Shown here: positions 1-61,509 of the stretch, piece by piece
Position numbering within the stretch: the first letter of the stretch is position 1
Layout: each line of letters starts with the position of its first letter
The notes under the pieces: generated by a model
The model's database searches: none
Told to the model about the DNA's origin: nothing
What the model saw: the letters and a program-made list of their open reading frames with translations, nothing else
Translations under genes and position numbers: made by a program
NCBI GenBank assembly: GCA_036172245.1
Contig: JAYWIR010000150.1
Coordinates: 1 to 61,509, forward strand
Direction of reading: 5' to 3'
Source: Raillietiella orientalis
Taxonomy: Eukaryota
DNA: 61,509 nucleotides

Positions 1-2717
1 GATTCGACGAAGGGGCTCGCAACGAACGCCCGTATTTGCACGCGCGTCGTCACGAAAGGAACCCCAATGTCCGTCGCCTAGCCGAATACCGCGCCGGAGC
101 CGAGCGACAAGCCTGGCAATCCGGGTCAGCCAACATGCGGGATGACCTGGGCCGGGAACGTTCGTCCCCGTCTGCGGTACGGAATCTCGTGCGGTGTTTT
201 TGTTCCTCCCTTTACGCCAAAACACCACTCGAACAAGCCGGCTCGCGGCGATTGCTCATGAGTGGTTTTGTGGCGATAGGGGAGGAGGAGAGAGAAAGGA
301 TCGATGAGCCTTTCACGATCGGCGAAATTCTCGCCGGTATCAAAAGGCTTAAAAGGCGTAAGGCGCCAGGTGAGGACGGCTTGCCCGCGGAGTTCTTTCA
401 GAGTTTCGCGGAAGAGCTGGCCCCCCTAGTGCTCGAGTTGATAAGACGAATCCGAGACGAAGGCGATGTTCCCACCTCCTTTCGGTCAGCCAGGGTGAGG
501 CTCCTCCCGAATGGAGGAGACCTCAGGAAACTTTGCAACTGGCGTCCGATCACGATTGTGAACACGGACGTCAAGTTGATTGCCGGGCTGTGGGCGTCGC
601 GATTGGGGCAGGTGTCCAAATCCATAATTATCCCGGAGCAGACTTACGCTGTTCACGGGCCAAGTATGGAGGGCAGCCTCTTCTTCGCGAGCACATGGAT
701 GCACGCGCAGCGGAGTAAGAAAGAAGGGAGAGGAAAACTTTGCAACCCTACTTTGGGGCCGCCAGTGAGACAGGGTAAGGACCCTCATGCTGGGAAGGGG
801 GCCTTAGCGATCGCAGTCGACCTCCATAAGGCATTCCACTGTGTTGACCGGGAACTCCTCTTGGAGCTCCTGGGTCGCATGGGCTTCCCATCCTCCTTGC
901 TTAACAACCTGCGCTCTTGCTGGCGGAACGCGATAATCTCAATTACTTTCAGTGGACAAAAGGCGTATGGCGTGCCGGTGCGGCGGTGCAAAAGGCAGGG
1001 AGACAGCCTCAGCCCCCTGCTTTTTAGCACCTACGCTGAGTTGGTGCTGAGAGCGTACAGGGTGACTTTGGCCCCCTTGCCGAGCTCGTGCCCCGGCACG
1101 CCAGCCGTAGCGGCGTATGCCGACGATCTTCTGCTCCTCTTACCTATGTCCACCCCGGCTAAGGCGGTCGGAGATTTCTTCGACCTGCTTAGCCGTGGGG
1201 CCGGATTACAGGTTAACAGGGCGAAGTCGTCAGTGTTGCCAGTTGGAGAGACGTGGGCAGGACAGCAGGACTGGGTCCGTCTGGGGATCTTCACGGTGAG
1301 GTGCATCAAGTACCTCGGTGTGCCGTTGGGGGACTTCTCTCCTGCGGAAGCGTGGACCAGCTGCCTCCAAAAAGTCGAGACGGCGATCGGCCCGTTCCTG
1401 GAAGGCAAGTTTCACTTGCCGGAACGGGCCGCGGTTTGGAACGCCTTCGCGGCTTCCATCCTCCGCCCCTTGCTTTTTGTTTGCCCCGCCCCCGTGGAAT
1501 CAAAAAAGCGGACGAAGGACCTCCTGCGCATAGCTCTTTAAGGCAAGGGGAGGCCCCGAGTCCCTTTGAAGGACTTGTGCGCTCCGCGTCGGGACGGCGG
1601 TCTCAGCATCTTGACGCTGAAGCGCGTGGAAATCCAGCTGCTATGGCGTACCCTCGACATCGCAGCGAAGATGTGGAGCACCGCTTGGTACATTTCTGCC
1701 CGCCTCCTGGCCAGGCGTGTGTCCCGCTGCGAAGGACTCGCATCGTTTCTTCTGTGCCCTGGCCGGAAGATTCGAAGATGCAGTCTACTGCTCGGCCGCA
1801 TGGCAACCCTGGCAAAGGAGAACGACTGGATGGTTTGAGGCCCTGCCAACTCCTTCGCTTGGCTGGAAGAGACTGCTGGCACCTTGGCCAAGCAGAACCA
1901 GAGGTGCGAAGAACGGATGAACTGCCTGCGAGACGGCTTTTACGCCCGCCGCACTCTCCGTGAAATTCTTGAATTTCCTACGAGTTGCACGTGGGCGGAA
2001 GGCACAGCCTTTGTTACGCCGATGCCCTTCGTCCATAGGGCGCTTTACGAAAGCCGGAAGCCAAGGTGGCAAGTCTGCTGCCGTTTCGCATGCAGAGAGA
2101 AGATGATGAGCGCCTGGACCATGGGTGAGTTGACAGATGCAACGACCCCTAGTCTCCTGTTGCGTGGATTTAGAAGATGGGGCGAGCTGCTCGGCATTCG
2201 ATTGGAAGACCTGAAGTGGCCCCCGGTTCTACTTGGATCCAAAATTCTTCCCCTGAAGTGGCGGGAATCGGCGCTTCTGTGGCTGCATTGGTGTCTACCC
2301 TGCAACGCGCGCCGCTCCCACTGGACGCGGGGAAGAGTAAATCCTGCGTGTGCCAGGTGTGGGGAGCGGGAGACGCTCCCCCACCTCTTAGTTGAATGCC
2401 CTGCCGTCCGGATTCTTTGGGATCGTCTGAAAACGGCCCTTCGGATACCGGATGGTGGCAATGTTGGAAGTGTCTTCAGTCTTGTCTTCGTGCGGGACGC
2501 CCTCAGTCCAGCCGCAGCGCTGGCAGCACTTTGCTGCATTCGTGGTATCGTGGCGGCCTGGAGTGATGCCGAAGATGAAGGCGGCATCGTTAGGGACGTC
2601 ATCGAGTATGCTTCTCGCTTCCTGCAGAGAGCTCTCCGATGGCCCCATCTGGGAAAACTGAAAATGGAACTAGAAGGCATCCTGCAGAGGATGGGCGCTC
2701 CCAGCAGTTTTCTGTGA
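1..2717 (+). pseudogene. LINE ORF2 (RT and zf-RVT-like finger) with in-frame stops
   Basis: ORF pieces 36-1541, 1566-1838 and 1884-2717 are in one frame, separated by TAA (1539-1541) and TGA (1836-1838). Confidence 0.92.
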
Positions 2718-2923
2718 TCCGTTACCGGCCCTCCGAATTTTTTTTTTTTTTTTTTTTTGTGGTTTGTTTTTCTTATTTATTTTGTTTTTGTTTTCTCTCC
2801 ATCCCCCTCCACTGCCGAGGAAAGCCACACCGGGCTGCGTCCCGGTGTCCCGGCAGTTCCGGTATTGCGTGGCCGTCAGTGGGGCCTTGTACCACGTTCT
2901 GTATTGACCGTCATAATGTTTTT

Positions 2924-2952
2924 AATAAACGTCCCGGCGTATCCGGGTGGCA
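2924..2952 (+). other. Conserved LINE 3'-terminal signal (AATAAA plus GC hairpin); representative of 9 occurrences
   Basis: aataaacgtCCCGGcgtatCCGGGtggca; also 5455-5484(-), 28868-28897(+), 31457-31486(-), 37296-37325(+), 39827-39855(-), 52121-52151(-), 56783-56812(-), 61427-61456(+). Confidence 0.9.
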
Positions 2953-3840
2953 TCGCCGAAACCTGGAGGAAGTTGATGGAGGGGAAACTGGTCACAGAAC
3001 TCTCGGACTGAGCGTTTTATTTTGTCCCAGTCAGCGAGAGTCTGCAGTTCGCAACTACGCAGGAATGCGCGCAGATCTTCGCGCGCTCCTGCGAGTCGCA
3101 ACCAGTCCCCCAGCAGGCGCCACGCTTCGGATGGTGGACCTCTGTCGCGCGGATGAATGTTGATCACTAGTCGAGGGTGATCGGACAGCTCCGACGCAAT
3201 TGCTCCTCGAGTCCCCACCCGCGTACACAAGTGGTTATCGAGGAACACGTGGTCGATTCTGCTTCTCGCCACGGCTTCATCGGCCAACAAGTTGCGTGTG
3301 TGCATAGCCGCACACAACTCGTTGACCAATTGTGCTTGTATGTCGGGCGCTTCCGACAGCAGGCGGACGTTGAAGTCTCCCGCTATCAGATGCGGCTGCC
3401 GCACGCCTGCTTCGGCCAGCCAGTCTCGCCGCAGGGTTTCGAAGAACGCAGTGCGTTCTGCTAGCCTGTGACTGGTGCAGGGCGCGTACAGGTTCGTGAC
3501 TACGAGGTCGAATCGATTCGGACCACTTAAGGACAAGTTGTCCGACTCGACATTCCTCGTCGAACTGTGCACTGCGCACCGCATTGGCGACGGCCGGCTT
3601 CAGCAGGAAGGCCACTCCGCGGTAGTGGTCTCCTACACCACGCCAAAGTAGCCTAGCCCCTGTGAGCCTCTCGTTTTCCTGAACGTCCTCTGCTCTCAGG
3701 GCATGCACCTCTTGAAGAAGTGCCAGATCGAAAGGTCGCAGGGTGTCGGCCACGCTACGCCTCTTGCATTCGCTACGCAGCCCGTTGACATTCCAACAGG
3801 CTATACGCAGCTGCCGGCAAGAGGCGATTCCACGCATCAT
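2951..3840 (-). pseudogene. LINE ORF2 APE endonuclease fragment, starting at the ORF2 ATG
   Basis: MRGIASCRQLRIACWNVNG, LLQE, YAP, GDFN, IDHVF and SDH motifs; one frameshift; cut at PPGFGD by the 3' end of element 1-2952. Confidence 0.9.
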
Positions 3841-5454
3841 GCTGCGAGACTTCAACCTGGTGCTCCTGCAAGAGACGCACGTTCTCAGAGCAGGAGATTT
3901 CCAGGAAATCGAAAGCATCGCAGGAGGGCGGCTACTGTGGAGGAACGGAAACGACCGCTCCTGCGGAGTGGCGTTTATGCTTAAGCCAGCCGTCGACAAC
4001 GCACTGCGCAGCGTCAGGTTCGACGAGGACAGTCGAGTTGGGCAGCTTGCGTTAAAGAGGTCCGACTCGATCGATTTCGTGGTGACGAACCTGTACGCTC
4101 CGGTGAGCAGCCACAGGGCCGAGGAACGCACTGCGTTCTTCGAATCCCTGCGGCGAGACTGGTTGGCTGAAGCAAGCGTACGGCGGGCGCACCTCATCGC
4201 GAGCGACTTCAATCTCCTCCTGCTTGCAGGTGCGCCCAGCAGTCGAGCACAACTGGTCAACGAGTTGTGCGCAGCAATGAATGCGCGCAACTTGTTGGCC
4301 GGTGATGCCGGGAGAGATCGGAACATCGATCACATGTTCCTCGACAACCAATTGTGCACGAAAGTGGGAACTCGAGGAACGCTCCCGGCAGAGCTGTCCG
4401 ACCATCCACGGCTCGTGCTCGAGTTGCATCCGCGGAATAAGGGCCCTCCCTTGAAAACGTAGCGCCTGCCAGGGGACTGGTTGCGCCTCGCAGAGCGGCG
4501 GAACCTCTACGCGCCTTCCTGCGAGGATTCCATCTTGAGACGCTCGCGGACTGTGACGAAATGAAGTGCTCAGTCCGCGAGTTTTGCGACCAGTTTCCCC
4601 TGGAACGTCTTCCGCCTAGCTTCGGCGATGGGGTCAGGAACGAGCGGGCCTACCTTCAGGACCGCTGGTATTCCAGGCGTTTCGACATCCGTCGCTTGGC
4701 GGAATTCAAAGCTGAGGCGGAGAGGCAGGCCTGGCAGTCAGGCTCGGCCTGCTTGCTGGACCATCAGAGCCAAGAACGCTCCAGCCTAGCTCAGGTAAGC
4801 CGCATCGTGCGGAAGTTTTATTCCTCCTTGGACGCGGCACTAATACCGGAGCGCCATTTCGCACAGCGCCTGCTGCAGGATAGCCTCCCCGCGCTCAAGG
4901 AGGAGGATCGTTTCTGGTTCGGAGAACCGTTCACGATGGTGGAGGTCGTCTCCGCCATCAACAGGCTGAAGAACAGGAAGGCACCAGGGGAGGACAGGCT
5001 GCCCGCGGAGTTTTACAAACACTTCTCGCCAGAGCTGGCCCCCCTGGTGCTCAGGTTAAGTGCGCTGATCCGCGAACACGGCGAAGTTCCCGCCTCGTTC
5101 CGGTCAGCAAAAGTACGTCTCCTACCGAAGACAGGAGACTTACGCAACATTGGCAACTGGCGTCCCATCACAGTAGTGAATGCGGACGCAAAGTTGTATG
5201 CCAAGTTGTGGGCTGAGCGTTTGAGGCGGGTGGCCGCTTCCGTGGTGAGTCCCGAGCAGACCTATGCTGTTCCCGGACGAACCATGGAGGCCAACCTGCT
5301 TCTCGCCAGAACATGGTGGCAGTTGCGACAACGCGTTGCCCATGAAGGTCAAGGGAGTCTTGTGCTCCCCTCTGACCAGGAACACCGGATGGAGGGTGGG
5401 AGGGACTCGGCGGAAGCCTTTGCAGACGCGGTCGACTTGCGCAAATCATTCGAT
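3841..5454 (+). pseudogene. LINE ORF2 fragment (APE to RT motif DLRKSFD); left part of a host element
   Basis: LLQETH, SDFN, SDH, KAPGED, WRPITVVN; stop at 4460-4462 and a frameshift; ends at the insertion of 5455-11099. Confidence 0.9.
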
Positions 5455-5679
5455 TTTCACCCGGATTTCTCCGGGTCGTTTATTAAAAAAATAAACTTTG
5501 TAAACAAATTATTAATGGCAGTTCCAATGCTCCAGCCAGAAGCTAAGAACCACAACGCCTGCCAATTCACCGGTTTCTAGACCGGTACGGTTCACCAAGG
5601 CAGCAGGGAAGAGGGGAAAAACAAAAAAACTAAACAAAAAAAAAAAAAAACACAAAGGGTGGGAGGGAACGGGAAGGGA

Positions 5680-8600
5680 TCACTGTTGCTGCTGGGGCCG
5701 CATCATCCCCCTCAGGATGCTGGCAAGCTCTTGTTTGTTGTAAACATCCAGGTGGGGCCATCGCGACGCCCTCCTCAGGAATTCGGAGGCGCACTGCATG
5801 GCTTCCTGATCGCTAGGTCCTCCCGTCGCCGTGACCAGTCGGCGACGATGCCACGAAGGCAGCACAAGGCTGCTATCGAGGACGCTGGCTGCAGGGCGTC
5901 GGCAACGAAGAAGGATTTTAGTGCGTATCTGGGGTTGCAGCAAGGGATACCGATGGCCGCGGCAAAGCGGAACCAAAGGGGCGGAAGGGCATCACAATCC
6001 ACTAGGAGGTGGGGGAAGGATTCCTTTTCCCCGCACCTTACACAATTAGGATCCACCGCTCCCCAGGTACAGTGGTGTCGACGGGCGTTGCAGGGCAGTC
6101 CCCAGTGCTGCAACAGGAATGCCGATTGTTGCCATTTTAGGGGGAGGATGGAAGTGTTCATAAGAATCGCGGGCCACTTCAGATGTTCAATCGGAACATC
6201 CAGCAGCGCTCCCCAGCGCAGAATTCTATTAGGAGGCGTACTCGGTGTCGCAACATCAGTTAGCTGGCCCGTCTTCCACTCTCTCTGCTTCTTCTCCTTC
6301 CCGGAGATTTTTATTGTAACCTCTCACTTCTCCGCAACATCGCTGTGCTGTTGTTCCACTTGGGAGTCCAGCGCAGCAGCGAGGGGGGTTCTTCCTGACC
6401 ACGCTCTCTTCTTAGGATACTCCACGATCTCACAAAGCGTGCACCTTCTGTAACACCCAAACAGGAACCTTCGTTCCTGATGGGAGGGTTGCATGCCTAA
6501 CTGGTCCCACGTACGAACGGTTTCCTGCAACCAGGCACTACCGTTCACGGGGAGACAGGTGATCCATCCTTGATGTTTCCTTGCCAGCGCAGCCCCCCTC
6601 GTAGCTGAAGGCCACATCGGTTGATGCGGCTTTGATAGAGTGCAAGAAACGACGTAAGTCCCTTCTTGTCGGTGGCTTGCTGAAGGAGGAGACGTGCAGG
6701 GACGCACCAACAGGTGCACCACAACTCCGGCACAAGTGCCAAAATCCGGAACTGGAGCTGCAGCTCCAGCCGCTCCAATGTCAGGAGGCCGAGACCACCG
6801 TCCCGACGCGGAGCGCACAAGTTCTTCAGGCGGACTCGGGGCGTCACGTTGCCCCAAAGGGCGATACGGAGAAGGTCCTTCGTCCGCTTTTTGATCCTCT
6901 CTGTGGGGGGACAAACAAACAGCAGGGAACGGAGTAGAGGAGCCGCGAACATGTTCCAAACCGCGGCCCTTTCAGGCAGGAAAAACCTGCCGCCTCGGAA
7001 CGGGCCGATAGCCGTCTCTACTTTTTGAAAGCAGGCGGACCACGCTTCCGCTGGGGAGTAGTCCCCCAACGGCACACGAAGGTACTCGAAGTACCTCACC
7101 GTGGGGATCCCCAAATGGACCCAGTCCTGCTGCCCTGCCCACGCCGCACCAATTGGCATCACGGACGACTTCGCCCTGTTCACTGTAAGCCCTGTTCCTC
7201 GATTCAGCAGGTCGAAGAACTTCTCGACCGCCGAAGCCGGGGTGAACATAGGGAGCAGTAGCAGGTTGTGGTCCGCATATGCTGAAACCGCAGGCGTTCC
7301 GGCGCACTCATATGGCAGGTTAGCCAGTGTTTCCCTGTACGCTTTCAGTACCAACTCAAAGTAGGTACTGAAGAGCAAGGGGCTCAGGCTGTCTCCTTGC
7401 CGGATACCACTTCGCACCGGCACGCCGTAAACAGTATGCCCGCTGAAAGTAACATTGATTAGCGCATCGTGCCAGCTAGAGCGCAGATAGGCCAATAATG
7501 AGGCCGGGAAGCCCAAGCGTTTTAAAAGCTTCCGCAGTAGATTCTGGTCGACGCTCTCGAATGCTTTACGCAAGTCGACAGCGACCGCAAGTGCTGCCTC
7601 CCCCATCCGACCATGCGTCGCATGACTGACGGACTCACCGGAATTCCCGGTGCGCATCAAGCCCCTTTCGTGTTGGGGCTCTAGCCAGGTGGAAGCGTGG
7701 AACAGGTTCGCCTCCATGCTTCGCCCTGGAACAGCATACGTCTGTTCCGAGATGACGAAGGCGTTTGCAACCCGTCCCAAACGCTCAGCTTAAACCTTAT
7801 CTATCAACTTGGCATCCGCATTCACTATTGTGATGGGACTCCAGTACTTCATGCTCCTCAGATCTCCTCACTTAGGGAGAAGCCGCAACTTTGCCGAACG
7901 AAACGAGGCGGGAACGTCACCTGTCTCGCGTATCAGCAAGGTGAGTTGATGTACCAGGGGGGTTAGCTCAGCCATCAAAGTTTGATAAATCTCCGCGGAC
8001 AGGCCGTCCTCCCCTGGAGCCTTTCGCCTCTTGAGCTTTCCGATGGCCGAGATGATCCCGCCCATCCTGAAAGACTCGTCGAGGAACTTTTTCTCCTGCT
8101 TCCCAAACGCAGGAGCGCCTTCCGGAAGCAGGACTCGTGAGAAATCCCGCTCGGAAGGCGTTCTTGCGTACAGGGAGGAGTAAAACCGCCGCAGCAGACC
8201 GCGGATTTGAGCGCGTGCCGAACGCTCCTGGCCCTGATCGTCCAGCAAGCTGGCCGATCCTGACTGTCAGGCTTGCCTCTCGGCTCCCGCTGTGTATTCC
8301 GTCAGCCTGCGGATGTCGGGGGACCTGGCGTAGCGACGAGCCTGCAGATAGGCTCTTTTGTTACGTACCCCGTCCTTAAATCTCGCAGGTAGGCGGTGCA
8401 GAGGGAACTGGTCGCAGAACTCCTGGATCGACCGTTTAAAGCGGTCCCAATCCTGAAGTGTATGCATCTTAAAGCTCCGTATAAACAAGCGGAGATGTTC
8501 CGTCGCGTCCAGGAGCTTCAGCCAGTCCCCTGGCAAACGCCACGCTGACGAGGGGGGGCCCCTGTCGCGCGGATGGATTTCAATCACGATTGGTCGATGG

Positions 8601-11885: not shown

Positions 11886-13172
11886 GATCGAGGCAGCACA
11901 GGGCTGAAATCGAGGCCGCTATGGGCAGGACCCCGCGATGCGGAGTTCCAGGCATATGTGTCATCAGGATACATGCCAGCACTTCGTTATAAGTTCAGTG
12001 GGCCACTTAACGGGAGAATCGGTCGTGAGCTCAATGATGAGCTCGTCCGGATAGGCGTTCGCGAGGAGGAACTCCTTGCCATAATGCCTGCTGGCAGGAT
12101 GGAATATACGAAGATTCGGTGCAAGAACGCAGCACTTGTGCAGCGCCTTCTCCGTACGCCGTTGACCATCAATAACAAGGAAGTCCTACATACCGCGATG
12201 GACGACTCTTTTGTCGTTCAATTGTGCGACATCGAACCGGAAATCTCCGACCGCGATGTCGTAAGTGTGCTGGCGAAGTTCGCCACCGTGCACCCTCTGT
12301 GGAGGAGGCCAAATCCTCTAAAGGATTTCCCCTCTGTCCACATTGGACAAGCCTCCGCGCGGATCACCGTCGCGAACAGGCGTGTTGTGCCTGAGCAGTT
12401 GCAGGTGAACGGCACGGTCGTTCACCTGTGGTTCATCAGCCAGACTCGCGCGTGCGAGCAGTGCGGCAAGGAGGGGCACCGAATTAAAGAGTGCCCCTCT
12501 CCAAGATGCCGCTATTGCAAAGATTCCGGGCACGAAATCAAAAAGTGCCCGGTACTTGCAAGAAAAAGAGCCGCAGCGGAAATTCGTCGGGTTCAAGAGA
12601 CCACTGCACGAAAAGCCGCAGCGGCAAATAAAAAACGTCGTCCGCAAAAACTCGCAAAAAACCACGAGCGATCCGCGGATGAAAAGAAAGCATCCCCGCC
12701 CGCAACGCCCCGAAAGGGGAAAGTCACGGCGGGGAAGCCAATTCAAAAGGGGCGCGAGGGTTTGACGCGTGCCGTGCCTTCCCTCTCTGGCGAACTCGCA
12801 GGCACTTTTCCGAGCCTGGAACCAGGGAATCTCCGTAACACCCTGGAGGGAAAGGTAGGAAAACAGGAAGATCGCAACAGTGCGAAGACTTCTTGCCCCG
12901 TTCCGTTGTCCCTTCCGAGTTCCGGACAGCCCCACTGCAGCGCAGGCCCCACTGCAAAGGCTACGAAAGCCGTAAAAAGCAGCGTCGCGACGAGCAATAG
13001 CACGCTGCATGCAGTCGCCCCATCGCCGACTCGGCAGGTTTCCCCAAGTCCCACAAGGGGTGGGGTAAGTTTATTTTTCTATAAAAATACAAAATTTACA
13101 TTCGCACTCTCATTCACTCAATACAATTATTTTGCACTTGGGGGTCCTTGGGTTTCACTAGAGTTCTGCTTT

Positions 13173-16100
13173 TCAGGGGGGAATTCCAGCTGCATGGTCC
13201 CGGGCGTCGTCCTGGATCCTCTTCAGGATGAATCGGTACGTCCAGGCGTGGATCTTCCCGCAGTTCCTGATGCCGATTTCCCTCTTCAAGAGCCCTTGTA
13301 GGATCTCCATCGGTGGTGCGGCTCTTCTGGCTTTCCTCATTTTCCACCACCGCACAAGTATGGCGGTGATGAAGAGGGCTATGGTCGTCCTCACCATGGG
13401 ATTGTAACAGGGAACATTACCATCCCCATGAAACATCCCGGCGAGGATCTCCATAACGGACTTGTTGGTAAGTCCTATGATCCTTTTCAGGATCAGCCAA
13501 TCATGCAGGAGTGTGGGACACGTCAAGACGTGAAGTCTCGTGTCGTCGTCTCCACATGCTGCGCAGTCTCGGTCTTCCCGTCTTCCTGTAAAGTGCTGCA
13601 ATCGGGATCCACTCTGGATTCCTCCGTGATAAAACATCAGGAGCTCATCCTGGGTGCCCGGCGGAAGGTCACTCCTCCAGAGCGTCGTGCCGATCCCTAA
13701 CAGGTTGAACCGTTCACTCCCGTAGCGTTCGGTGGCTTCCTGGAGGGCACTGGTGTCACCGTCGTTTTCTTGGATAAGCCTTCGGAGGTTTGTTCTGGTT
13801 ACCCTCGACCATGCGAAGTCGTTGTGGTTGAACCACACTTCGAAGGTCCTGTGGGTAAACCTTCCTAACATCATCTCTGTATACCGAAGTATACGTGTTT
13901 GATGTAGGTAGCCTCCTCGCCTCCACTCCTGGATTTGTTGAAGGGTAACTCTGGACCGCTGGTGGATCCAGCTTCTCGTGTCCGGCGGGACAGGAAGCAA
14001 CCAAGGGATCACCAGCATGGACTCGTCCTGCCAGAGTTCCCTGCTTCGCGGCACGATCTTTATTTGGTGCTTCCGCACCAGCCGTTGCTTCCTCCTCCAG
14101 GTCGGGTCGATTTTGTTCCATTTGCCTGCTCGGCCTAGCAGCGCAGTCATCAGGCCTTTCGAGTTGTTTAGCAACAACGCGTAGGCCCTGTGCGCCGCAT
14201 ACGGCCAGTCATCCCAGTAAGTGGCAATGTCCAGGATGTGTCGCGTATCCATGATTTCCATGGAATGTGCAAGCGACTTCATCCCGGAACCGCCTTCTTC
14301 CCTGGGACGACACAGGGGTTTCAGTCTTACTCTTGGGAGATAGTGGCCCCAGAGTGTTTTTCTTTGCAGCTTGTCGAACTCCCTAGTAGTGTCCTTGTTC
14401 ATCCTCGCGAAGGCCGCCCCGAAGAGCACTTTCGGAAGGAGTACTCCGTTCCATATGTTGGCCTTTCGCTTCATCCCAAGGTCCGTTCGGGTGTACTTGG
14501 CTGCTTCCTTGGCCGTTTTCCCCAGGATTTCTTTCCACAGCAGCTTCGACGCAGAGCCGTCGCCGATGTAGACTCCCAGGTACTTGGCCGTGTCCACCGT
14601 ACGGAATCCACTACCCGTTAGAGTGGAGGGATCCAGGATTCCGACGGGCAAAAGCTGGCTCTTCTGGGAATTGATTTTTAAGCCCAAGCCCTGTTCCATC
14701 TGGTCCACCACATCCAGAAACGCACGCTGATTTTTCTCTCCCTTGATGAAGAAGAGTAGATCATCGGCGTATGCCAGATGGGTAAGACGCTGGCTATCGA
14801 TGGTAATCCCACTTAGTCGTCCGCTCTTCTCGATAAAGGACGACAACGCCTCCATATAGATGACGAACAGCATCGGACTTAGCGAGTCGCCCTGTCGGAC
14901 TCCTCGTTCCATCCTGATTGCTGCCGTCTCCTGGCCGTTGATACTGATCCGGCAGTACTGGTTCTGGAGTACCGCCCTCACAAAGTTACTGAAGTGTTCC
15001 GGAAGCCCTAGCTTCTCCAGAAACTTCAGCAGCATCCTGTGGTCGATGGAGTCGAAGGCCTTCTCCATGTCAGTGAACACCAGCACCAGGTTCTCGCCGA
15101 CGTATCGACTGAGTCCAACAGTGGCCTGGGCACACTTGACATTGTCCGACATGTGTCGTCCTGGGACTGCACATGTCTGGACCGGAGAGATCAGCCTCGA
15201 CATGACCTTGCGTAAGCGGTTGGAACAGATCTTCGCCAACCACTTGGCATCGGAGTTTAGAATCGAGATTGGCCTCCATTGGGCGATCTGGGTAGAGTCG
15301 CCTCCTTTCGGCAGCAATCTCATCCGACTCTCGTAGAAGGACTGAGGTAGTCTGCCTTCTTCCCGGATGCAGAGGGTCAACTGGTGGAACAAGCGCAGGT
15401 AGGCGTGCGGGTACCGCTGATAGTGCGTGATGGGTACACTGTCAGGGCCCGCTGCCACGTCCTTGCGAAGTTGCCCAAACGCAGTCTTCACCTCTTCTTC
15501 GGAGAACTCCTCCTCCAGTCTGTTCCGCTGGAGGTCGTCGATCCTCTTCTCGAGATAGCTCAAGAAGGCCTGTTGACTAGAGCGACACAGCTGTTGTCGC
15601 CTGAAGTGTTTCGTGTAATGCCTGTGAAAGGCATCCACGATGTCCTCAGACGACTGTCGCTTTTGGCCGTCGTACTGGATGCAGAAGATATCTGTTGCCA
15701 GATTTCTCTTCTCCAGCACGCCGACTTCCTTTTTTATGTTATTGAGGACGTACCGACTCTCGTACTGATCGAAGTACTTTGAGAGGGAGCGATCTTGGAT
15801 GTTCAGCTCCCGGTACGCCTCTTGCCTCAAGCGCCTATCCCCGAACTGCATGTTCGCAAACAGGTGTATCCTGTGTTTCAGGCTGTCCCAGTCGGCGACT
15901 CTTCGGATTGTTGTTGCCTTCAGAATCGTCTCCAGGACAGCCTGATGTCCGGGATGAATTTCGAACCAGGCGGGCATGCTGATGAGCGCCACCCTGGTGC
16001 CTTGCCTCCGCCGAGGATTCTCCGTTCTTAGGGAAAACCGCACCAGGGGGTGATCGGACACCGTGGTCATAATGTCTCGAAAACCCTGGATGCGATTCCC

Positions 16101-16691
16101 AAGTTCGGTGCTGTGCAGGACGTGATCGATTGGCTTGTGGCTTGCTGTTCGCCAGACCAGTCCGAACTCCCCGGATAGCCGTCGATACGCCGTCCTTCCT
16201 CTGGCGTCTTCCGAATGAATGATCTCATCCAATATGTTGAGATCGCCAGCAACAATCACGACGTCCTTTGGGGCAACCTTTTCACGGAGTGCTGCATGCA
16301 GCGCCTCCGCACAACGATGTTTTAGCCTGTGCGGTCCGTACACGTTCACCAGGATGAGGTGAACAGTAGCGGACCAGGCGAGTCGCACGCCGATGATTCG
16401 TCCGGGTTGGGGACAGAACACTTCCAGAATAGTGGGGGCCAAGTTGTTCTTGATTAGGACCGCCACTCCCTGCGTGTTCCGTTCTCTCTCGCTGACGAAA
16501 ATCTGCCCGTTGTATCGCCGTTCCATTTGCTGACTAATCTCGAGACCCATCTTGTGGGTCTCCTGCAGGCACACTATGTCTTGTTGTGCGATGGTCCGCA
16601 CAATCCTTCTTCTTTTTCCCTAGTCGACCATACCGTTTACATTCCAGGAGGCGATGTTCAGCCTCCTGGCGGTCGATAGGGAAGAGGCCAT
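13173..16691 (-). pseudogene. Lineage-B ORF2 (APE-RT-CCHC), intact except one early TAG at ~16620-16622
   Basis: 1142-aa open frame downstream of the stop with LQETH, GDLN, SDH, FTDMEKAFD, QGDSLSP, AYADD, KYLG, CAACGDDDTRLHVLTC; ATG at 16691 aligns with the copy 2 start. Confidence 0.93.
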
Positions 16692-16704
16692 AAAAGGGGA
16701 AGAC

Positions 16705-18492
16705 CTATTTCTTGGCCTTCCTGTGCTTCTTCTGTCTGCGAGAGCGTGCTCTTCCAGACAATGAAGAAGCAGCGGGCTTCTCGCTGCCGGCGTCACTCTC
16801 TGTTCCGGTGAGGTCGGTTACTTCCGCCTCCTCCGTCGAGTGTTCGTCCCGCTCGATCTGTTTTCGAGATAGCGTCTCTATCTGGACCTTGGCGCAGAAG
16901 TTCGCCTTTACGTCGAGAAGCTGTTCCTCTAGCTTTTCGCGCTCGGTGACCTCCACAACCTGGTTGACCTTCTCCTGTGCATTGCAGATCTTCTGCAAGA
17001 TTTTCTCTTGCTGAGGACCGCTCTGCACCTCTAGGACTACATTAGCCAGTGATGCCAACTCCTCCGTAGATTGCAGGGCCTCCTGTGACACCGGAGTGGC
17101 TTCGGCTTTTTCTTCTTCCGCGCCTTCCTGCGCTACCTCCATCTTCTCGCCTTCTTGCTCTTCACCTTCCAGGATAAGAGGGGTTTCTTGCTCCTTGACG
17201 AGCATCCTTCTCTTTCCTTTCTTCCCTACCTGTATGAAGCCGTCTTCCGATACCGGGACGGCTTCTTTCACCTTCTTCGGCCTTCCTGCCTTCTGAGGCT
17301 GTTCGGCCTCCTTGATGTTTCTCTCTCTCACGGGAGAGAGACCTCGAATCCTTCTGCAGTTTTCAAACTCCGGACAGCTCCATTTCGCATGTCCGTGTTT
17401 CTTGCAGAAGGAGCACACCTCCGGCTGCGGGCAGTTTCGTACTTGATGTCCTAGTTTGCCGCAGCGGAAACAACGACACGTTGGGCAAGCCCCGGCCCTG
17501 TGGCCGAACTGCTTGGACCCGGTGCAGAATACCGGTTGTTGCCGTTAACGCACATTCACTCCCTGGGATTGTTCGTCAATAACGGCCAATGCAGGGATCA
17601 CCGCTCCCTCCCTCAACTTCATCTTGGCGATCATGTCGCCAGAAAATATGTTTCCAGAGAAGTTCTGGAAATCAAGGTCCAGAACTTCCCCAAACTGCTC
17701 CAAGTAATTCCACACCGCTAGTTGCAGTGTGAAAATGGAGGTGCCGTTTAAAAAGACGGTTGTGTATGGCATCTCGCCAATACCACAAACCATCCGTCCT
17801 TGTATATTGATCCCATTCTGGATCAATTTCTCTCTAATGTTTTCACAGTCTGTAAAGACTGTGAACCCGTTGTTCGATGGAATGATCGCCTGAATGCGAT
17901 CAAAGTCTATGTCCGTCTTGTCGAGGGACAAATAGACCTCCCTGATGTTATTAAATTTTATTAGCCCCGTCTTGAAGATAATGGGCTTCACGTTGGGGCC
18001 TATTTCGACTAGTGGTCGGTCCACTTTTAGTACTTTTCCGCTAAGCGGCTTACCGAATTTCCTAGGTGGGTGGACACTCGCCTGTCCAGCCGCCACCGAC
18101 GCATAAGAAAAGGGCTGCGACGCCGCAGCCGAACAAGATGGCGTCGCTCCCTGCACCGCGTGGACGCCCGTGGGTCCCGCCTGGGACGCCACCGACGTGG
18201 GCGCAAACCTCGACGTTGCCGCCGTTACCGCCGCGGGCGGCACCCTCGGCATCGCCGCCGCAGGCGCGACCTTCCCCGCCGCGGTCACGATCCTCGGCGT
18301 CGCCGCCGCGGGCACGACCTCCGCCGTCGTCGCCGCGGGCACGACCTTTGGCATCGCCGCCGCCGGCGCAGCAAAGCCCGCCGCGGGCGCGATCCTCGGC
18401 ATGCCTGCCGCCACCTCGCCGTTGCCGCACGTTACCTCCATGGCTTCCATGGGGGACGACGGTCTCTCCACTCCTCTTCTAGGTGCCTGCAT
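16705..18492 (-). pseudogene. Lineage-B ORF1 copy 1, premature TAA at 17545-17547
   Basis: Collinear with the intact copy-2 ORF1 at offset 5638; Tyr codon changed to a stop just before the zinc knuckles. Confidence 0.9.
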
Positions 18493-18981
18493 CCTGGCAG
18501 CTGGTCTTGCTGCACGGGACCACTGCAGGTCTTTTGCCGCGATCTCCTCGCCGCTTCTTTTTTTTGTTTCTTCTGGAAAACTTCCCCTCTCCGCGCACGC
18601 ACGAGCACAATGAACTGATTAAGTTGTCAAGCGCACAATACTTCGAGCCGCGGAGCAAGTTCACCGACTCGGCAGGTTTCCCCAAGTCCCACAAGGGGTG
18701 GGGTAAGTTTATTTTTCTATAAAAATACAAAATTTACTTTCGCACTCTCATTCACTCAATACAATTATTTTGCACTTGGGGGTCCTTGGGTTGCACTAGA
18801 GTTCTGCTTTTCAGGGGGGAATTCCAGCTGGATGGTCCCGGGCGTCGTCCTGGATCCTCTTCAGGATGAATCGGTACGTCCAGGCGTGGATCTTCCCGCA
18901 GTTCCTGATGCCGATTTTTCTCTTCAAGAGCCCTTGTAAAATCTCCATCGGTGGTGCGGCTCTCCTGGCTTTCCTCATTTT

Positions 18982-21900
18982 TCACCACCGCACAAGTATG
19001 GCGGTGATGAAGAGGGCTATGGTCGTCCTCACCATGGGATTGTAACAGGGAACATTACCATCCCCATGAAACATCCCGGCGAGGGTCTCCATAACGGACT
19101 TGTTGGTAAGTCCTATGATCCTTTTCAGGATCAGCCAGTCATGCAGCAGTGTGGGACACGTCAAGACGTGAAGTCTCGTGTCGTCGTCTCCACATGCTGC
19201 GCAGTCTCGGTCTTCCCGTCTTCCTGTAAAGTGCTGCAATCGGGACCCACTCTGGATTCCTCCGTGATAAAACATCAGGAGGTCATCCTGGGTGCCCGGC
19301 GGAAGGTCACTCCTCCAGAGCGTCGTGCCGATCGCTAACAGGTTGAACCGATCACTACCGTAGCGTTCGGTGGCTTCCTGGAGGGCACTGGTGTCACGGT
19401 CGTTTTCTTGGATAAGCCTTAGGAGGTTTGTTCTGGTTACCCTCGACCATGCGAAGTCGTTGTGGTTGAACCACACTTCGCGGGTCCTGTGGGTAAACCT
19501 TCCTAACATCATCTCTGTATACCGAAGTATACGTGTTTGATGTAGGTAGCCTCCTCGCCTCCACTCCTGAATTTGTAGTAGGGTAACTCTGGACCGCTGG
19601 TAGATCCAGCTTCTCGTGTCCGGCGGGACAGGAAGCAACCAAGGCATCACCAGGATGGACTCGTCCTGCCAGAGTTCCCTGCTTCGCGGCACGATCTTGA
19701 TTTGGTGCTTCCGCACCAGCCGTTGCTTCCTCGTCCAGGTTGGGTCGATTTTGTTCCATTTGCCTGCTCGGCCTAGCAGCGCAGTCATCAGGCCTTTCGA
19801 GTTGTTAAGCAACAACGCGTAGGCCCTGTGCGCCGCATATGGCCAGTCATCCCAGTGAGTGGCAATGTCCAGGATGTGTCGCGTATCCATGATTTCCATG
19901 GAATGTGCAGGCGACTTCATCCCGGAACCGCCTTCTTCCCTGGGACGACACAGGGGTTTCAGTCTTACTCTTGGGCGATAGTGGCCCCAGAGTGTTTTTC
20001 TTTGCAGCTTGTCGAACTCCCTAGTAGTGTCCTTGTTCATAATCGCAAAGGCCGCCCCGAAGAGCACTTTCGGAAGGAGTACTCCGTTCCATATGTTGGC
20101 CTTTCGCTTCATCCCAAGGTCCGTTCGGGTGAACTTGGCTGCTTCCTTGGCCGTTTTCCCCAGGATTTCTTTCCACAGCATTTTCGACGCAGAGCCGACG
20201 CCGAAGTAGACTCCCAGGTACTTGGCCGTGTCCACCGTACGAAATCCACTACCCGTTAGAGTTGAGAGATCGAGGATTTCGACGGGAAAAAGCTGGCTCT
20301 TCTGGGAATTGATTTTTAAGCCCAAGCCTTGTTCCATCTGGTTCACCACATCCAGAAACGTACGCTGATTTTTCTCTCCCTTGATGAAGAAGAGTAGATC
20401 ATTGGCGTATGCCAGATGGGTAAGACGCTGGCTATCGATGGTAATCGCGCATAGTCGTCCGCTCTTCTCGATAAAGGACGACAACGCCTCCATATAGATG
20501 ACGAACAGCATCGGACTTAGCGAGTCGCCCTGTCGGACTCCTCGTTCCATCCTGATTGCTGCCGTCTCCTGGCCGTTGATCTTGATCCGGCAGTACTGGT
20601 TCTGGAGTACCGCCCTCACGAAGTTGCTGAAGTGTTCCGGAAGCCCTAGCTTCTCCAGAACCTTCAGCAGCATCCCGTGGTCGATGGAGTCGAAGGCCTT
20701 CTCCATTTCAGTGAACACCAGCACCAGGTTCTCGCCGACGTATCGACTGAGTCCAACAGTGGCCTGGGCACACTTGACATTGTCCGACATGTGTCGTCCT
20801 GGGACTGCACATGTCTGGACCGGAGAGATCAGCCTCGACATGACCTTGCCTAAGCGGTTCGACCAGATCTTCGCCAACCACTTGGCATCGGAGTTTAGAA
20901 TCGAGATTGGCCTCCATTGGGCGATCTGGGTAGAGTCGCCTCCTTTCGGCAGCAATCTCATCCGACTCTCGTAGAAGGACTGAGGTAGTCTGCCTTCTTT
21001 CCGGATGCAGAGGGTCAACTGGTGGAACAAGCGCAGGTAGGCGTGCAGGTACCGCTGATAGTGCGTGATGGGTACACTGTCAGGGCCCGCTGCCACGTCC
21101 TTGCGAAGTTGCCCAAACGCAGTCTTCACCTCTTCTTCGGAGAACTCCTCCTCCAGTCTGTTCCGCTGGAGGTCGTCGATCCTCTTCTCGAGATAGCTCA
21201 AGAAGACCTGTTGACTAGAGCGACACAGCTGTTGTCGCCTGAAGTGTTTCGTGTAATGCCTTTGAAAGGCATCCACGATGTCCTCAGACGACTGTCGCTT
21301 TTGGCCGTCGTACTGGATGCAGAAGATATCTGTTGCCAGATTTCTCTTCTCCAGCACGCCGACTTCCCCTTTTATGTTATTGAGGACGTACCTACTCTCG
21401 TACTGATCGAAGTACTTTGAGAGGGAGCGATCTCGGATGTTCAGCTCCCGGTACGCCTCTTGCCTCAAGCGCCTATCCCCGAACTGCATGTTCGGAAACA
21501 GGTGTATCCTGTGTTTCAGGCTGTCCCAGTCGGCGACTCTTCGGATTGTTGTTGCCCTCAGAATCGCCTCCAGGACAGCCTGATGTCCGGGATGGGTTTC
21601 GAACCAGGCGGGCATGCTGATGAGCGCCGCCCTGGTGCCTTGCCTCCGTCGAAGATTCTCCGTTCTTAGGGAAAACCGCACCAGGGGGTGATCGGACACC
21701 GTAGTCATAGTGTCGCGAAACCCCTGGATGCGGTTCCCAAGTTCGGTGCTGTGCAGGACGTGATCGATTGGCTTGTGGCTTGCTGTTCGCCAGACCAGTC
21801 CGAACTCCTCGGATAGCCGTCGACACGCCGTCCTTCCTCTGGCGTCTTCCGAATGAATGATCTCATCCAAGATGTTGAGATCGCCAGCAACAATCACGAC

Positions 21901-22329
21901 GTCCTTAGGGGCGTCCTTTTGCCGGAGTGTTGCATGCAGCGCCTCCGCACAACGATGTTTTAGCCTGTGCGGCCCGTACACGTTCACCAGGATAAGGTGA
22001 ACAGTCGCGGACCAGGCCAGTCGCACGCCGGTGATTCGTCCGGGTTGGGGACAGAACACTTCCAGAATAGTGGGGGCTAAGTGGTTCTTTATTAGCACCG
22101 CCACACCCTTCGTGTTCCGTTCTCCTTCGTTGACGAACATCTGCCCGTTGAATCGCCGTTCCATTCGCTGGCTTATCTCGAGACCCATCCTGTGGGACTC
22201 CTGCAGGCACACGATGTCTTGTTGTGCGATGGTCCGCACAATCCTTCTTCTTTTTCCCTGATCGACCACACCGTTTACGTTCCAGGAGGCGATGTTAATC
22301 CTCCTGGCGGTCGATAGGCAAGAGGCCAT
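18982..22329 (-). pseudogene. Lineage-B ORF2 copy 2: open frame but catalytic Asp substitutions (FTE, YAND) and a premature C-terminal stop
   Basis: ORF 18982-22434; compared with copy 1, FTDMEK is FTEMEK, YADD is YAND, and WW is W-stop. Confidence 0.9.
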
Positions 22330-22342
22330 AAAAGGGGAAGAC

Positions 22343-24130
22343 CTATTTTTTGGCCTTCCTGAGCTTCTTCTGTCTGAGAGAGCGTGCTCTTCCAGACAAT
22401 GAAGAAGCAGCGGGTTTCTCGCTGCCGGCGTCACTCTCCGTACCTGTGAGGTCGGTAATTTCCGCCTCCTCCGTAGAGTGTTCCGCCTGCGCGATCAATT
22501 TTCGAGACAGCGCCTCTATCTCGACCTTGGCGCAGAAGTTCGCCTTCACGTCGAGAAGCTGTTCCTCTAACTTCTCGCGTTCAGCGACCTCCACCACCTG
22601 GTTGATGTTCTCTTGTGCAGTGCAGATCTTCTGCAAGATTTTCTCTTGCTGAGGACCACTCTGCACCTCCATGATCTCCTCCGCCAGTGTTGCCAACTCC
22701 TCCGTAGTCTGCAGAGCCTCCTGCGACACTTTAGTGGCTTCCTGTCTCTCTTCCTTCGCGCCTTCCTGCGCTACCTCCATCTTCTCGCCTTCCTGCTCTG
22801 CTGCTTCCAGGATTTGAGGAGTTCCTTGCTCCTTGACGAGCATCCTCCTCTTTCCCTTCTTTCCCACTTCTATGAAGCCGTCCGCCGACACCGGGACAGC
22901 TTCTTTCACTTTTTTCTGCCTTCCTGCCTTCTGAGGCTGTTCGGCCTCCTTGATGTTTCTCTCTCTTACGGGAGAGAGACCTCGAATCCTTCTGCAGTTT
23001 TCAAACTCCGGACAGCTCCATTTCGCATGTCCGTGTTTCTTGCAGAAGGAGCACACCTCCGGATGCGGGCAGTTTCGGACTTGATGTCCTACTTTGCCGC
23101 AGCGGAAACAACGACACGTTGGGCAAGAGCCGGCCCTGTGACCGAACTGCTTGCACCCGGTGCAGAATACCGGTTGTTGCCGGTAACGCACATTCACTCC
23201 CTGGGATTGGTCGTCAATAACGGCCAATCCAGGGATCACCGCTCCCTCCCTCAACTTCATCTTGGCGATCATGTCGCCAGAAAATATGTTTCCAGAGAAG
23301 TTCTGGAAATCAAGGTCCAGAACTTCCCCAAACTGCTCCAAGTAATTCCACACCGCTAGTTGCGGTGTGAGGATGGAGATGCCGTTTAAAAAGACAGTTG
23401 TGTATGGCATCTCGCCAATACCACAAACCATCCGTCCTTGTATATTGATCCCCTTCTGGATCAATCGCTCTCTAATGTTTTCACAGTCTGTAAAGACTGT
23501 GAACCCGTTGTTTGATGGAATGATCGCCTGAATGCGATCAAAGTCTATGTCCGTCTTGTCGAGGGACAAATAGACCTCCCTGATGTTATTAAATTTTATT
23601 AGCCCCGTCTTGAAGATAATGGGCTTCACGTTGGGGCCTATTTCGTCTATTGGTCGGTCCACTTTTAGTACATTTCCGCTAAGCGGCTTACCGAATTTCC
23701 GAGGTGGGTGGACACTCGCCTGTCCAGCCGCCACCGACGCATAAGAAAAGGGCTGCGACGCCGCAGCCGAACAAGATGGCGTCGCTGCCTGCACCGCGTG
23801 GACGCCCGCGGGTCCCGCCTGGGACGCCACCGCCGCGGGCGAAAACCTCGACGTTGCCGCCGTTACCGCCGCGGGCGGCACTCTCGGCATCGCCGCCGCA
23901 GGCGCGACCTTCCCCGCCGCGGGCACGATCCTCGGCGTCGCCGCCGCGGGCACGACCTCCGCCGTCGGCGCCGCGGGCACGACCCTTGGCATCGCCGCCG
24001 CCGGCGCAGCAAAGCCCGCCGCGGGCGCGATCCTCGGCATGCCTGCCACCGCCTCGCCGTTGCCGCCCGTTACCTCCATGGCTTCCATGGGGGACGACGG
24101 TCTCTCCACTCCTCTTCTAGGTGCCTGCAT
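22343..24130 (-). CDS. Lineage-B ORF1p, intact; Ala/Pro-rich N-terminus and three CCHC zinc knuckles
   Basis: CTGCKQFGHRAGSC, CFRCGKVGHQVRNC, CSFCKKHGHAKWSC; start MQAPRRG inferred by alignment with copy 1; 13-nt spacer to the ORF2 ATG. Confidence 0.85.
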   Translation of the reverse strand: MQAPRRGVERPSSPMEAMEVTGGNGEAVAGMPRIAPAAGFAAPAAAMPRVVPAAPTAEVVPAAATPRIVPAAGKVAPAAAMPRVPPAAVTAATSRFSPAAVASQAGPAGVHAVQAATPSCSAAASQPFSYASVAAGQASVHPPRKFGKPLSGNVLKVDRPIDEIGPNVKPIIFKTGLIKFNNIREVYLSLDKTDIDFDRIQAIIPSNNGFTVFTDCENIRERLIQKGINIQGRMVCGIGEMPYTTVFLNGISILTPQLAVWNYLEQFGEVLDLDFQNFSGNIFSGDMIAKMKLREGAVIPGLAVIDDQSQGVNVRYRQQPVFCTGCKQFGHRAGSCPTCRCFRCGKVGHQVRNCPHPEVCSFCKKHGHAKWSCPEFENCRRIRGLSPVRERNIKEAEQPQKAGRQKKVKEAVPVSADGFIEVGKKGKRRMLVKEQGTPQILEAAEQEGEKMEVAQEGAKEERQEATKVSQEALQTTEELATLAEEIMEVQSGPQQEKILQKICTAQENINQVVEVAEREKLEEQLLDVKANFCAKVEIEALSRKLIAQAEHSTEEAEITDLTGTESDAGSEKPAASSLSGRARSLRQKKLRKAKK

Positions 24131-24971
24131 CCTGGCAGCTGGTCTTGCTGCACGGGACCACTGCAGGTCTTTTGCCGCGATCTCCTCGCCGCTTCTTTTT
24201 TTGTTTCTTCTGGAAAACTTCCCCTCTCCGGGCACACACGAGCACAATTAACTGATTACTTTGTCAAGCGCACAATACTTTGAACCGCGGAGCAAGTTCA
24301 CTGACTAGGCAGGAGCAGAGCGATCTGCCGACTGTCAGGAAGGTGACTCCGTTGCCGCCTTTTAAATGCGTAGCGAAAGCAACGCCCCCAGAGAACGCAG
24401 CGAAAATCCCGGAGGTTTCCGCAACTACTGTCGCGGAAGCCTCCGAAAATCCCGAAGGCGAATGGAAGGTTGTGGAGAGGAGGAAAGAAAAATCTGCAAA
24501 AAGAGCTCCTCAACCTCAATCCCTGAGTTCTTCCAAAGGAAAAAGCAGTCGCGGAAATACGAAAACACGCGCCGCTTGTGACTCTTCCTAGGAAAAAGCC
24601 AGCCCCTTCAACGCGTGCAAGTCCGCTTCTGTGACCGCCGAGAAGACCATTCCGGTGCAATCGGACGGATGCAAGCGCACGTCGATCGTGCCACCATCAG
24701 ACTCCGCAAAGGAGTCCGATAGCGCAGCTGAAAGACGCGTAACTCGCGCGGGAGCGAGCGCCCGCAGGGCTGAAGCCTTGAGGCGTGACACACTCGCCGC
24801 GGAACGGCGAGAGCTCACCCCGGAAACCACAGGTTCTGAACCCGGGGAGGAGCTCTCGATTACTCTCTGCACAGTTGAGGCCGGTGGCGACCGCGCCCTC
24901 CAGCCCGTCGTGCTGCTTACTGCCCGCTCGCCGGGTGGGACGAGCACCACGGTCTCGCTTTCCCATCCGTG

Positions 24972-28542: not shown

Positions 28543-28897
28543 GAACGGCGTAATCCGGTGACTTCTGCGACCTCTCGCCCACCCATACCCCGTCCCCGTT
28601 CGCTCAATAAAATTTCCGGTGCCCATGCTTTTATCCCCGTGTCTTCCAGAGCGATCCCAAAGACCCTTATCCCGTCTTCCTTATTCAATGTTTTTATTTT
28701 ATTTTGGTTTCTTTGTGTTTCCCGCCCCCCCACACCGTTCAAGAAACTGTTACTCTGGCCTGCGTGTCAGCAATGTTCTTTTCATTCTTGTTCATTCTTC
28801 GGTTGGGAGTTTGGTTAACAACTGGTTTATTTTGTATAATTGCTTTTTTTGTGGTTATGTTATATGGAATAAACGCCCCGGCGTGACCGGGTGAGAA

Positions 28898-61456: not shown

Positions 61457-61509
61457 CTATCAGCTTTGCGTCCGTATTCACGATCGCGATGGGACGCCAG
61501 TTCTTTGAA
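61457..61509 (-). pseudogene. RT fragment (NWRPIAIVNTDAKLI) running off the window
   Basis: Reverse complement of 31404-31456. Confidence 0.85.

Follow-up and report, generated by a model that had tools for sequence, protein, structure and literature searches.

To our knowledge, a detailed picture of how LINE enzymes choose their RNA exists for only a few elements, and within the L1 clade it mostly concerns the relaxed, mammalian type that reads poly(A). Stringent template choice has been described in L2, in R2, and in a single L1 lineage of plants. The locus described here, a 61.5-kb stretch of DNA that we analyzed over its full length and refer to as the window, raises the question of how L1-like LINEs that end without a poly(A) tail could mark their own RNA for reverse transcription. 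A sequence-only reading had drawn attention to a hexaloop hairpin (HP1) in the 3′ untranslated region (3′ UTR) of several elements and had proposed that it is a selected RNA element, plausibly the signal recognized by the ORF2 protein (ORF2p).

The window, with a G+C content of 53-62%, is a dense nest of non-LTR retrotransposons and is filled with L1-like LINEs that have a CCHC ORF1 and an ORF2 with endonuclease, reverse transcriptase, and zf-RVT. Pfam assigns RVT_1 and Exo_endo_phos to the ORF2 frames and zf-CCHC to those of ORF1; zf-RVT appears in two ORF2 frames at sub-threshold scores (22.2 and 20.5 bits, against a Pfam cut-off of 27.5). The domain order expected of an L1-clade ORF2, namely an N-terminal endonuclease of the apurinic type, then a reverse transcriptase, with a zinc-binding motif at the C terminus, is present. 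One element on the minus strand is intact (ORF1 at 22343-24247 and ORF2 at 18982-22494), and when used as a tblastn query it identifies about a dozen LINE copies in both orientations. The closest database proteins have the same domains (PF00078, PF03372, and PF13966) and are 24% identical at best, and matches in the Protein Atlas are confined to LINE-like clusters that carry no taxa. By domain content, on which this clade assignment is based, the elements look L1-like, and they are without the usual A-rich end. A poly(A) or A-rich 3′ end is usual, though not universal, in the L1 clade, and these LINEs do not have one.

The elements are nested within one another, with copy C inserted in copy G and flanked by a target-site duplication and copy G inserted in copy B with a duplication-like flank. 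Large recent inverted segmental duplications, 95-99% identical, are also present (167-6774 against 36006-42613, and 31404-34068 against 57329-61509). Since they reproduce entire sections of the nest, a number of the "copies" of any one feature in the window are not independent of one another. Over the whole window the observed/expected ratio of CpG is 0.98 and that of TpG and CpA is 1.03, with no sign of methylation-driven CpG decay.

HP1 is a hexaloop hairpin in the LINE 3′ UTR, and we count six independent copies (A to F) and one broken copy (G). Copy A follows an ORF2 remnant with reverse transcriptase and zf-RVT (3..2717, plus strand; identified by Pfam and tblastn, with the stop codon TGA at 2715-2717) and lies 109 nt after that stop, at 2827-2848 on the plus strand, with an 8-bp stem (ACACCGGG-ctgcgt-CCCGGTGT). 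An identical hairpin, A′, at 39931-39952 on the minus strand is its recent segmental duplicate. Copy B (52217-52238, minus strand) also has an 8-bp stem (ACGCCGGG-ctgcgt-CCCGGCGT), in which an A-U pair of copy A is replaced by G-C, a change that the sequence-only reading had described correctly. The stems of copy C (CCGAC-ctgcgt-GTCGG; 56878-56893, minus strand) and copy D (CTGGC-ctgcgt-GTCAG, with one G.U pair; 28755-28770, plus strand) are 5 bp long. Copy E (51015-51037, plus strand) has 8 bp and one bulged A (TTACC(A)GGC-cttcgt-GCCGGTAA), and the end of its tail is missing. Copy F (5569-5586, minus strand) has a 6-bp stem, ACCGGT-ctagaa-ACCGGT, and a duplicate, F′, at 37194-37211 on the plus strand. 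The loop is thus CTGCGT in four of the six independent copies, CTTCGT in one, and CTAGAA in one. In copy G (61365-61378, plus strand; a 98% identical duplicate lies at 31535-31548, minus strand) the 5′ arm and loop are kept (ACGCCTGT-ctgcat) and the 3′ arm is absent from the alignment; this is the copy near 61370 that had been called degenerate, and rightly so.

All HP1 copies lie in a 3′ UTR in the sense orientation of the LINE, as had been reported for the hairpins originally listed, each of which is in the sequence at its listed coordinates. The tails share a common plan, in which the stop codon is followed by a C-rich box, a T/G-rich tract, a second C-rich box, a CGCTGCCGAGGA-like motif, HP1, a poorly conserved spacer, and AATAAA. 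The distance from HP1 to AATAAA, previously estimated at roughly 65-100 nt, is 62-97 nt by our count; in copy B the signal reads ATAAAT. An outer helix, P1 (CTGCCG...CGGCAG; 2812..2856, plus strand, in copy A), surrounds HP1 in A, B, and F only; 63.9% of its cells are paired, and C, D, and E are unpaired. The tail of copy E (50800-51190, plus strand) contains HP1 and has no recognizable AATAAA-hairpin end, as it runs into the ORF2 start of another element at about position 51191. The T/G-rich tract between the stop codon and HP1 (2738..2800, plus strand, in copy A) has a counterpart in all seven tails. It is 40-80 nt long in every tail, includes 21 consecutive T residues in copy A, and could be an upstream polyadenylation element. 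An origin of the T-run as the A-tail of an opposite-strand element is ruled out by copy C, whose entire tail lies, in the sense orientation, within its target-site duplication.

How much the copies can tell us depends on their independence. The pairs 2827/39931 and 5569/37194 fall within a single recent inverted segmental duplication (167-6774 against 36006-42613, 95-99% identical) and are therefore duplicates, leaving six hairpins and one broken hairpin as the independent set. The sequence-only reading was right that the hairpin recurs across subfamilies; it had listed these duplicates among its copies. The tail of copy A is about 68% identical to those of B and G and 66% identical to that of F by blastn, while the tails of C, D, and E are not matched by blastn with tail A at E 1e-3. 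One blastn alignment spans both host and element at A and at B, and we considered whether A and B could be a single old segmental duplicate with neutral differences. This is ruled out by the ratio of nonsynonymous to synonymous change (dN/dS), which is 0.26-0.33 between A and B, whose differences are mainly at third codon positions, and 0.32 between their host elements, and by unlike 5′ junctions: Z joins A′ 22 nt past the insertion hot spot described below, and G joins B about 190 codons further on. A and B are thus separate insertions, at the same site, of lineages that diverged while coding. Neighboring ORF1 and endonuclease-start blocks give a dN/dS of 0.14-0.45; for the recent duplicate pair A/A′ the value is 0.67, calculated from very few changes. 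Nor is the replacement of A-U by G-C between A and B simply a product of two CpG decays, given the CpG ratio of the window.

One account of HP1 is that it has no function, and that it is an inherited CCGG-rich palindrome whose pairing was left by chance and shared descent in a GC-rich tail. Several properties of the hairpin are consistent with this: self-complementary words of the CCGG type, which a G+C content of 57% makes common, are plentiful in its stems; few sequences are available; and two stem positions never vary. The occurrence of CTGCGT is itself unremarkable, as the 46 sites in the window (both strands) compare with 36 ± 5.7 expected, and this count was reached in 6 of 100 shuffles. 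When abutting pairs are counted around these sites, 41 have 0-2 and five have 5 or 8, and all five of the well-paired sites are in LINE 3′ UTRs in the sense orientation. At least five abutting pairs around any 6-nt loop are found at 640 of 61,483 positions, and this background of 1.04% argues against chance pairing. In an alignment made by MAFFT with no structure information, all seven loops fall in the same columns, and 39 of the 48 stem cells are paired; for the inner five pairs the count is 29 of 30, the single miss being the bulged A of copy E. A model-fitted alignment gives the same pairing counts. Both sides have changed at five of the eight stem positions, and the closing pair is C-G in three copies, G-C in two, and U-A in one, which counts against an inherited palindrome. 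The arms have diverged to the degree of neutral tail sequence (52-57% identical), yet they pair, and the earlier claim that the stems change sequence and keep their pairing agrees with these counts. When the partner strand was slid by 1-3 columns as a control, pairing fell from 81% to 31-44%.

Tests of covariation point in the same direction. Column shuffles reached the observed paired share in 4 of 500 cases and the observed covariation score in 1 of 500 (alignment A2) or 4 of 500 (the model-fitted alignment, A5), and a stricter measure, which counts pairs changed on both sides, was reached by 35 of 500 (A2) and 47 of 500 (A5) shuffles; these frequencies are to be read against the 5-25% of unconstrained alignments of related sequences that reach such counts. 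With six sequences, the covariation is suggestive and falls short of proof. RNAalifold, applied to the whole 3′ UTR alignment of 280 columns, predicts only the inner five pairs of HP1 and the terminal hairpin. Pairwise identity is 74% for the loop and 52-57% for the arms, falls to 39% over the downstream spacer, and rises to 80% for AATAAACG and 77% for HP2. The HP1 loop exceeds every other stretch between the T-rich tract and AATAAA in conservation, which also speaks against a hairpin devoid of function. To judge from these alignments, the identity pattern is the one expected of a loop read by its sequence on a stem read by its shape.

The G.U pairs of HP1 (pair 2 of D, pair 7 of C and F, and three in the outer helix of B) fit only the sense RNA. 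They bear on another possibility, that the hairpin acts in DNA or in the antisense strand, for example in the first-strand cDNA or as a genomic palindrome bound by protein. In A, B, E, and F the inverted repeat is perfect and would form on one strand as well as on the other. On the antisense strand, however, each of these G.U pairs would become an A.C mismatch, and the asymmetric loop is conserved in the sense orientation in every copy; we regard an action in DNA or on the antisense strand as hardly credible. As far as seven sequences allow, the proposal that HP1 is a selected RNA element is upheld by the contrast between loop (74%) and spacer (39%), the slid controls, and the sense-only G.U pairs, and selection on the structure is likely on the evidence of these sequences.

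A covariance model of HP1 scores eight known sites at 24.7 bits or more and its next match at 11.8 bits; the known sites match by construction, and the informative part is the gap in score. The model and the HP2 motif match only LINE tails within the 61.5-kb window, and no partner SINE with this tail is found there. Rfam has no match at gathering score in the window, and around HP1 its only hits are sul1 (14.8 bits; cut-off 36.2) and CrcZ (11.3 bits; cut-off 95). A scan of viral contigs with the 16-mer core of HP1 gave 27 loci, none of which has an HP2 motif downstream or a T-rich tract upstream, and these are chance matches.

Folding of single sequences gives a more uneven picture. Copy A has a minimum free energy of -17.1 kcal/mol (z -2.30) and a pair probability of at least 0.97 in the full 3′ UTR, and the short-context z scores of B, E, and F are -1.82, -2.38, and -2.06, respectively. 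For copy C, z is -0.91 and ViennaRNA favors another register, the HP1 stem alone having -5.7 kcal/mol; copy D is weak, at -4.1 kcal/mol with a z of +0.59 in short context and -3.6 kcal/mol for the stem alone. In the full-UTR ensemble, the probability of HP1 is near 1 in A and F, 0.63 in D, 0.06 in E, and near 0 in B and C. In copy B, long-range pairing with the terminal region out-competes HP1 in the ensemble, and such a competitor is possible there because the sequence of the HP1 3′ arm is almost that of the HP2 5′ arm. This near-repeat (CCCGGYGT) is a property of the A/B subgroup; in B (52125-52238, minus strand), the long-range alternative of ViennaRNA replaces both hairpins, and it is not conserved in C, D, E, or F. 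Only six independent HP1 sequences are available, and the stems of two of them, C and D, are short (5 bp) and weak. The unremarkable thermodynamics of C and D and the lack of the 3′ arm in G both favor the absence of a function; weighed against the pairing of the inner stem and the conservation of the loop, we consider that account of HP1 improbable.

Copy G merits attention for a further reason, as it is a full-length insertion with target-duplication-like flanks and is nevertheless without the 3′ arm of HP1. If the deletion of that arm predates the insertion, HP1 is dispensable. HP1 is also absent, by a covariance-model search, from family H (13015-24300), the sole intact LINE family in the window. 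The broken HP1 of G and the lack of HP1 in intact family H count against a universal or essential role. Family H consists of two nearly intact elements, H1 and H2, arranged head to tail (13015-24310, minus strand), with ORF2s 94% and tails 97% identical. They apparently sit inside the ORF1-ORF2 spacer of copy D, antisense to it. In the tail of this family, AATAAAC precedes about 45 nt of sequence that folds into two hairpins, and an A-tail is again absent; because these two hairpins are different ones, an equivalence between the family H hairpin after AATAAA and HP2 is not established. The 13 nt that precede the 5′ end of H1 (CCTGCCTAGTCAG) resemble the 3′ end of family H itself (CCTGCCGAGTCGG), a resemblance that could be a target-site duplication or could reflect targeting by homology.

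The sequence-only reading had taken AATAAA as the end of the element. This is incorrect, as another 20-25 nt of element follow the signal and form a terminal hairpin, HP2, that had been missed. In all six independent tails that reach the end (nine sites when duplicates are included), AATAAA leads directly into CG-N-CCCGG-N(4-6)-CCGGG-TG, beyond which the flanking sequence is unrelated; B is a variant, with the signal ATAAAT and the HP2 stem CCCGGG/CCTGGG. In copy A, AATAAA and HP2 (CG-N-CCCGG-N5-CCGGG-TG) occupy 2924..2949 on the plus strand and form the 3′ end of the copy. The equivalents are at 39830-39854, 52125-52154, 56787-56811, 5458-5483, and 31461-31485 on the minus strand and at 28869-28893, 37297-37322, and 61428-61452 on the plus strand. 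The HP2 stem is almost invariant and its loop is free. Twelve loci were found when metagenomes were scanned with the HP2 motif, most of them copies of one bacterial-looking locus, and none had a T-rich tract or HP1 upstream on inspection by eye.

That HP2 is the true 3′ end is best seen in copy C (56787-57861), a 5′-truncated insertion of 1.07 kb flanked by a 13-bp target-site duplication (56771-56783 and 57862-57874). The ORF2 C terminus and everything through HP2 lie inside this duplication, from which GGGTG is separated by three bases. This 3′ boundary agrees with a loose end, at 56786, of contigs from X1, one DNA sequencing run (10% of sampled words) in which 568 contigs matched at 80% likeness and mostly were less than 90% alike. 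Copy G has an imperfect 16-nt duplication at its flanks, identical at 12 of 16 bases. No poly(A) tail is present at any of the six independent ends, all of which finish with CCGGGTG and 2-6 nt. These 2-6 bases between HP2 and the recognizable target (ACA, AGAA, AAA, GC, GTA, and GCAACT) are of uncertain origin. Since HP2 is the true 3′ end and is not followed by poly(A), reverse transcription must start at the foot of HP2. The 3′ edge of HP1, by comparison, lies 91-123 nt before the element terminus, and the terminal place belongs to HP2.

The 3′ ends also show where the elements have inserted. All six independent ends (2949, 52125, 56787, 28893, 5458, and 61452) adjoin the antisense strand of the ORF2 of another LINE, and the recognizable target starts with ATC at five of them and with AAC in B. 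Three independent insertions used one ATCGCCGAAACC-like site, which lies on the antisense strand of ORF2 immediately past the endonuclease domain, at 2950 (plus strand), 52124 (minus strand), and 42768-42800 (plus strand); these events are the insertion of A into one host, of B into another, and of Z into A′, where the 5′ end lies 22 nt further on. An unoccupied copy of this site is found in another element at 30874-30885 (minus strand). The insertions of C and D lie within about 30 nt of the same homologous position. Some 5′ junctions (D and W) adjoin fragments on the same strand, and the antisense bias is not shown for every junction. Twin priming produces a divergent arrangement from a single RNA and is thereby ruled out as the source of the convergent LINE pairs in the window.

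These observations can be placed in a model of how the tail would work. The transcript would be cut about 20 nt past AAUAAA, just beyond HP2; a distance of 20-25 nt is usual for cleavage at that signal. A ribonucleoprotein encoded by the element, most likely with ORF2p as its reading component, would then recognize its own RNA by the predicted two-hairpin tail. In a putative division of labor between the hairpins, HP1 would display a CU-initiated hexaloop (CUGCGU), read by its sequence, on a stem whose own sequence is free, and HP2 would hold the RNA 3′ end at the active site. Target-primed reverse transcription would begin within a few nucleotides of HP2, which would account for copies that have no A-tail. 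The proposal that HP1 is a cis-acting RNA stem-loop, the specificity element of a "stringent" LINE tail made of two hairpins and putatively bound by ORF2p, is one that we hold with about even confidence. HP2 competes with HP1 as the docking site, for which its position is at least as good, and HP2 alone could serve as that site, as it is terminal and more highly conserved in sequence than HP1. By analogy with other LINEs, a role of HP1 as an ORF2p signal is plausible, shared with HP2 or possibly secondary to it.

The terminal position of HP2 also leaves room for a different reader of HP1. The ORF1s of these elements have zf-CCHC knuckles, and the knuckles of retroviral nucleocapsid proteins bind the loops of packaging signals. 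HP1 might be a packaging or chaperone site for the ORF1 protein (ORF1p), whose CCHC knuckles would bind the G-containing hexaloop while HP2 alone docked the reverse transcriptase. A conserved loop on a variable stem suits any protein that reads loops, and the point of initiation is occupied by HP2, not by HP1. In the stringent LINEs studied so far, however, it is ORF2p that reads the tail hairpin (PMC4176376), and we consider binding by ORF1p unlikely.

The place of HP1 between the U/G-rich tract and the conserved AAUAAA, in an element that ends 20-25 nt past the signal, raises one more alternative, namely, that HP1 has no part in template choice and is an auxiliary element of 3′-end formation or RNA stability, acting with the tract and the signal. 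The arrangement resembles that of poly(A) elements of the far-upstream and near-upstream kinds. A hairpin with a conserved loop and a stem of free sequence would, however, be unusual for a host processing signal. Moreover, the copies have no A-tail, so any post-cleavage additions were left uncopied, and this by itself demands specific positioning of the reverse transcriptase. We judge a role in 3′-end processing or stability alone to be quite unlikely, and we return to the two-hairpin recognition signal as our preferred reading.

Among known systems, the tail hairpins of LINEs of the L2 clade are among the closest. In stringent zebrafish L2 elements, the tail hairpin is bound by ORF2p, with the stem recognized generally and the loop specifically (PMC4176376). 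UnaL2 of eel and ZfL2-1 and ZfL2-2 of zebrafish likewise have a short hairpin in the LINE tail; in HP1, correspondingly, the loop is conserved and the stem changes in ways that preserve pairing. The elements with HP1 differ from these in being L1-like (zf-RVT and a CCHC ORF1) and thus of a different clade. In UnaL2 and ZfL2 the hairpin stands beside terminal repeats, whereas HP1 ends 91-123 nt from the element end and short terminal repeats are absent here. The present elements also have a second, terminal hairpin after AATAAA, and while ORF2p binding has been shown for the L2 hairpins, HP1 is known from its sequence. In its location in the sense 3′ UTR of a LINE, its compensated stem, and its conserved loop (in six sequences), HP1 resembles the stringent type; in closeness to the 3′ terminus it does not, and HP2 is terminal instead.

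Another close system is the monocot L1 lineage described by Ohshima. Its elements have a hairpin near the 3′ end whose stem carries compensatory changes and whose loop is conserved, which has been interpreted as a case of stringent recognition inside the L1 clade (PMC3747384); the elements described here are likewise L1-like LINEs with such a hairpin. The monocot elements, however, end in poly(A), their hairpin lies in the last 45 nt, and its loop is UCU with a CGAG flank (PMC3747384). They also are described there as having SINE partners in maize and sorghum (PMC3747384); none was found in the present window. R2 is like these elements in being a non-LTR retrotransposon without an A-tail, and its protein binds a structured 3′ UTR, with cDNA starting at a defined 3′ end (PMC11194090). 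It differs in having a restriction-like endonuclease, a single ORF, and an rDNA target, and it has no likeness to HP1 in sequence or structure (no Rfam match). Zepp and ZeppL of green algae are likewise G+C-rich L1-type LINEs in nested clusters (PMC3446292, PMC8226300), a likeness of arrangement. Taking these comparisons together, we consider it most likely that the two-hairpin tail is a known kind of signal, found here in an undescribed LINE family.

A broader reading joins the tail to the pattern of insertion. It would define an L1-like superfamily without poly(A), with a bipartite tail of a loop-specific hexaloop hairpin and a terminal hairpin set exactly between AAUAAA and the site of cleavage, that targets itself by inserting antisense into the ORF2 of its relatives and, by re-using a hot spot at least three times, builds nested clusters. 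We put this forward tentatively, and it could well be wrong in part. If true, it would provide a natural example of the "ancestral stringent L1" proposed by Ohshima and would tie the recognition of the template to self-targeted nesting. For genome annotation, the end formed by AATAAACG and the hairpin sharply marks where these elements truly stop on the 3′ side. Together, HP1 and HP2 form a compact RNA tag that can be tested for trans-mobilization. If the two-hairpin tail is indeed a recognition signal, these LINEs would be a second natural system, beside one plant lineage, in which to test whether stringent recognition is ancestral in L1.
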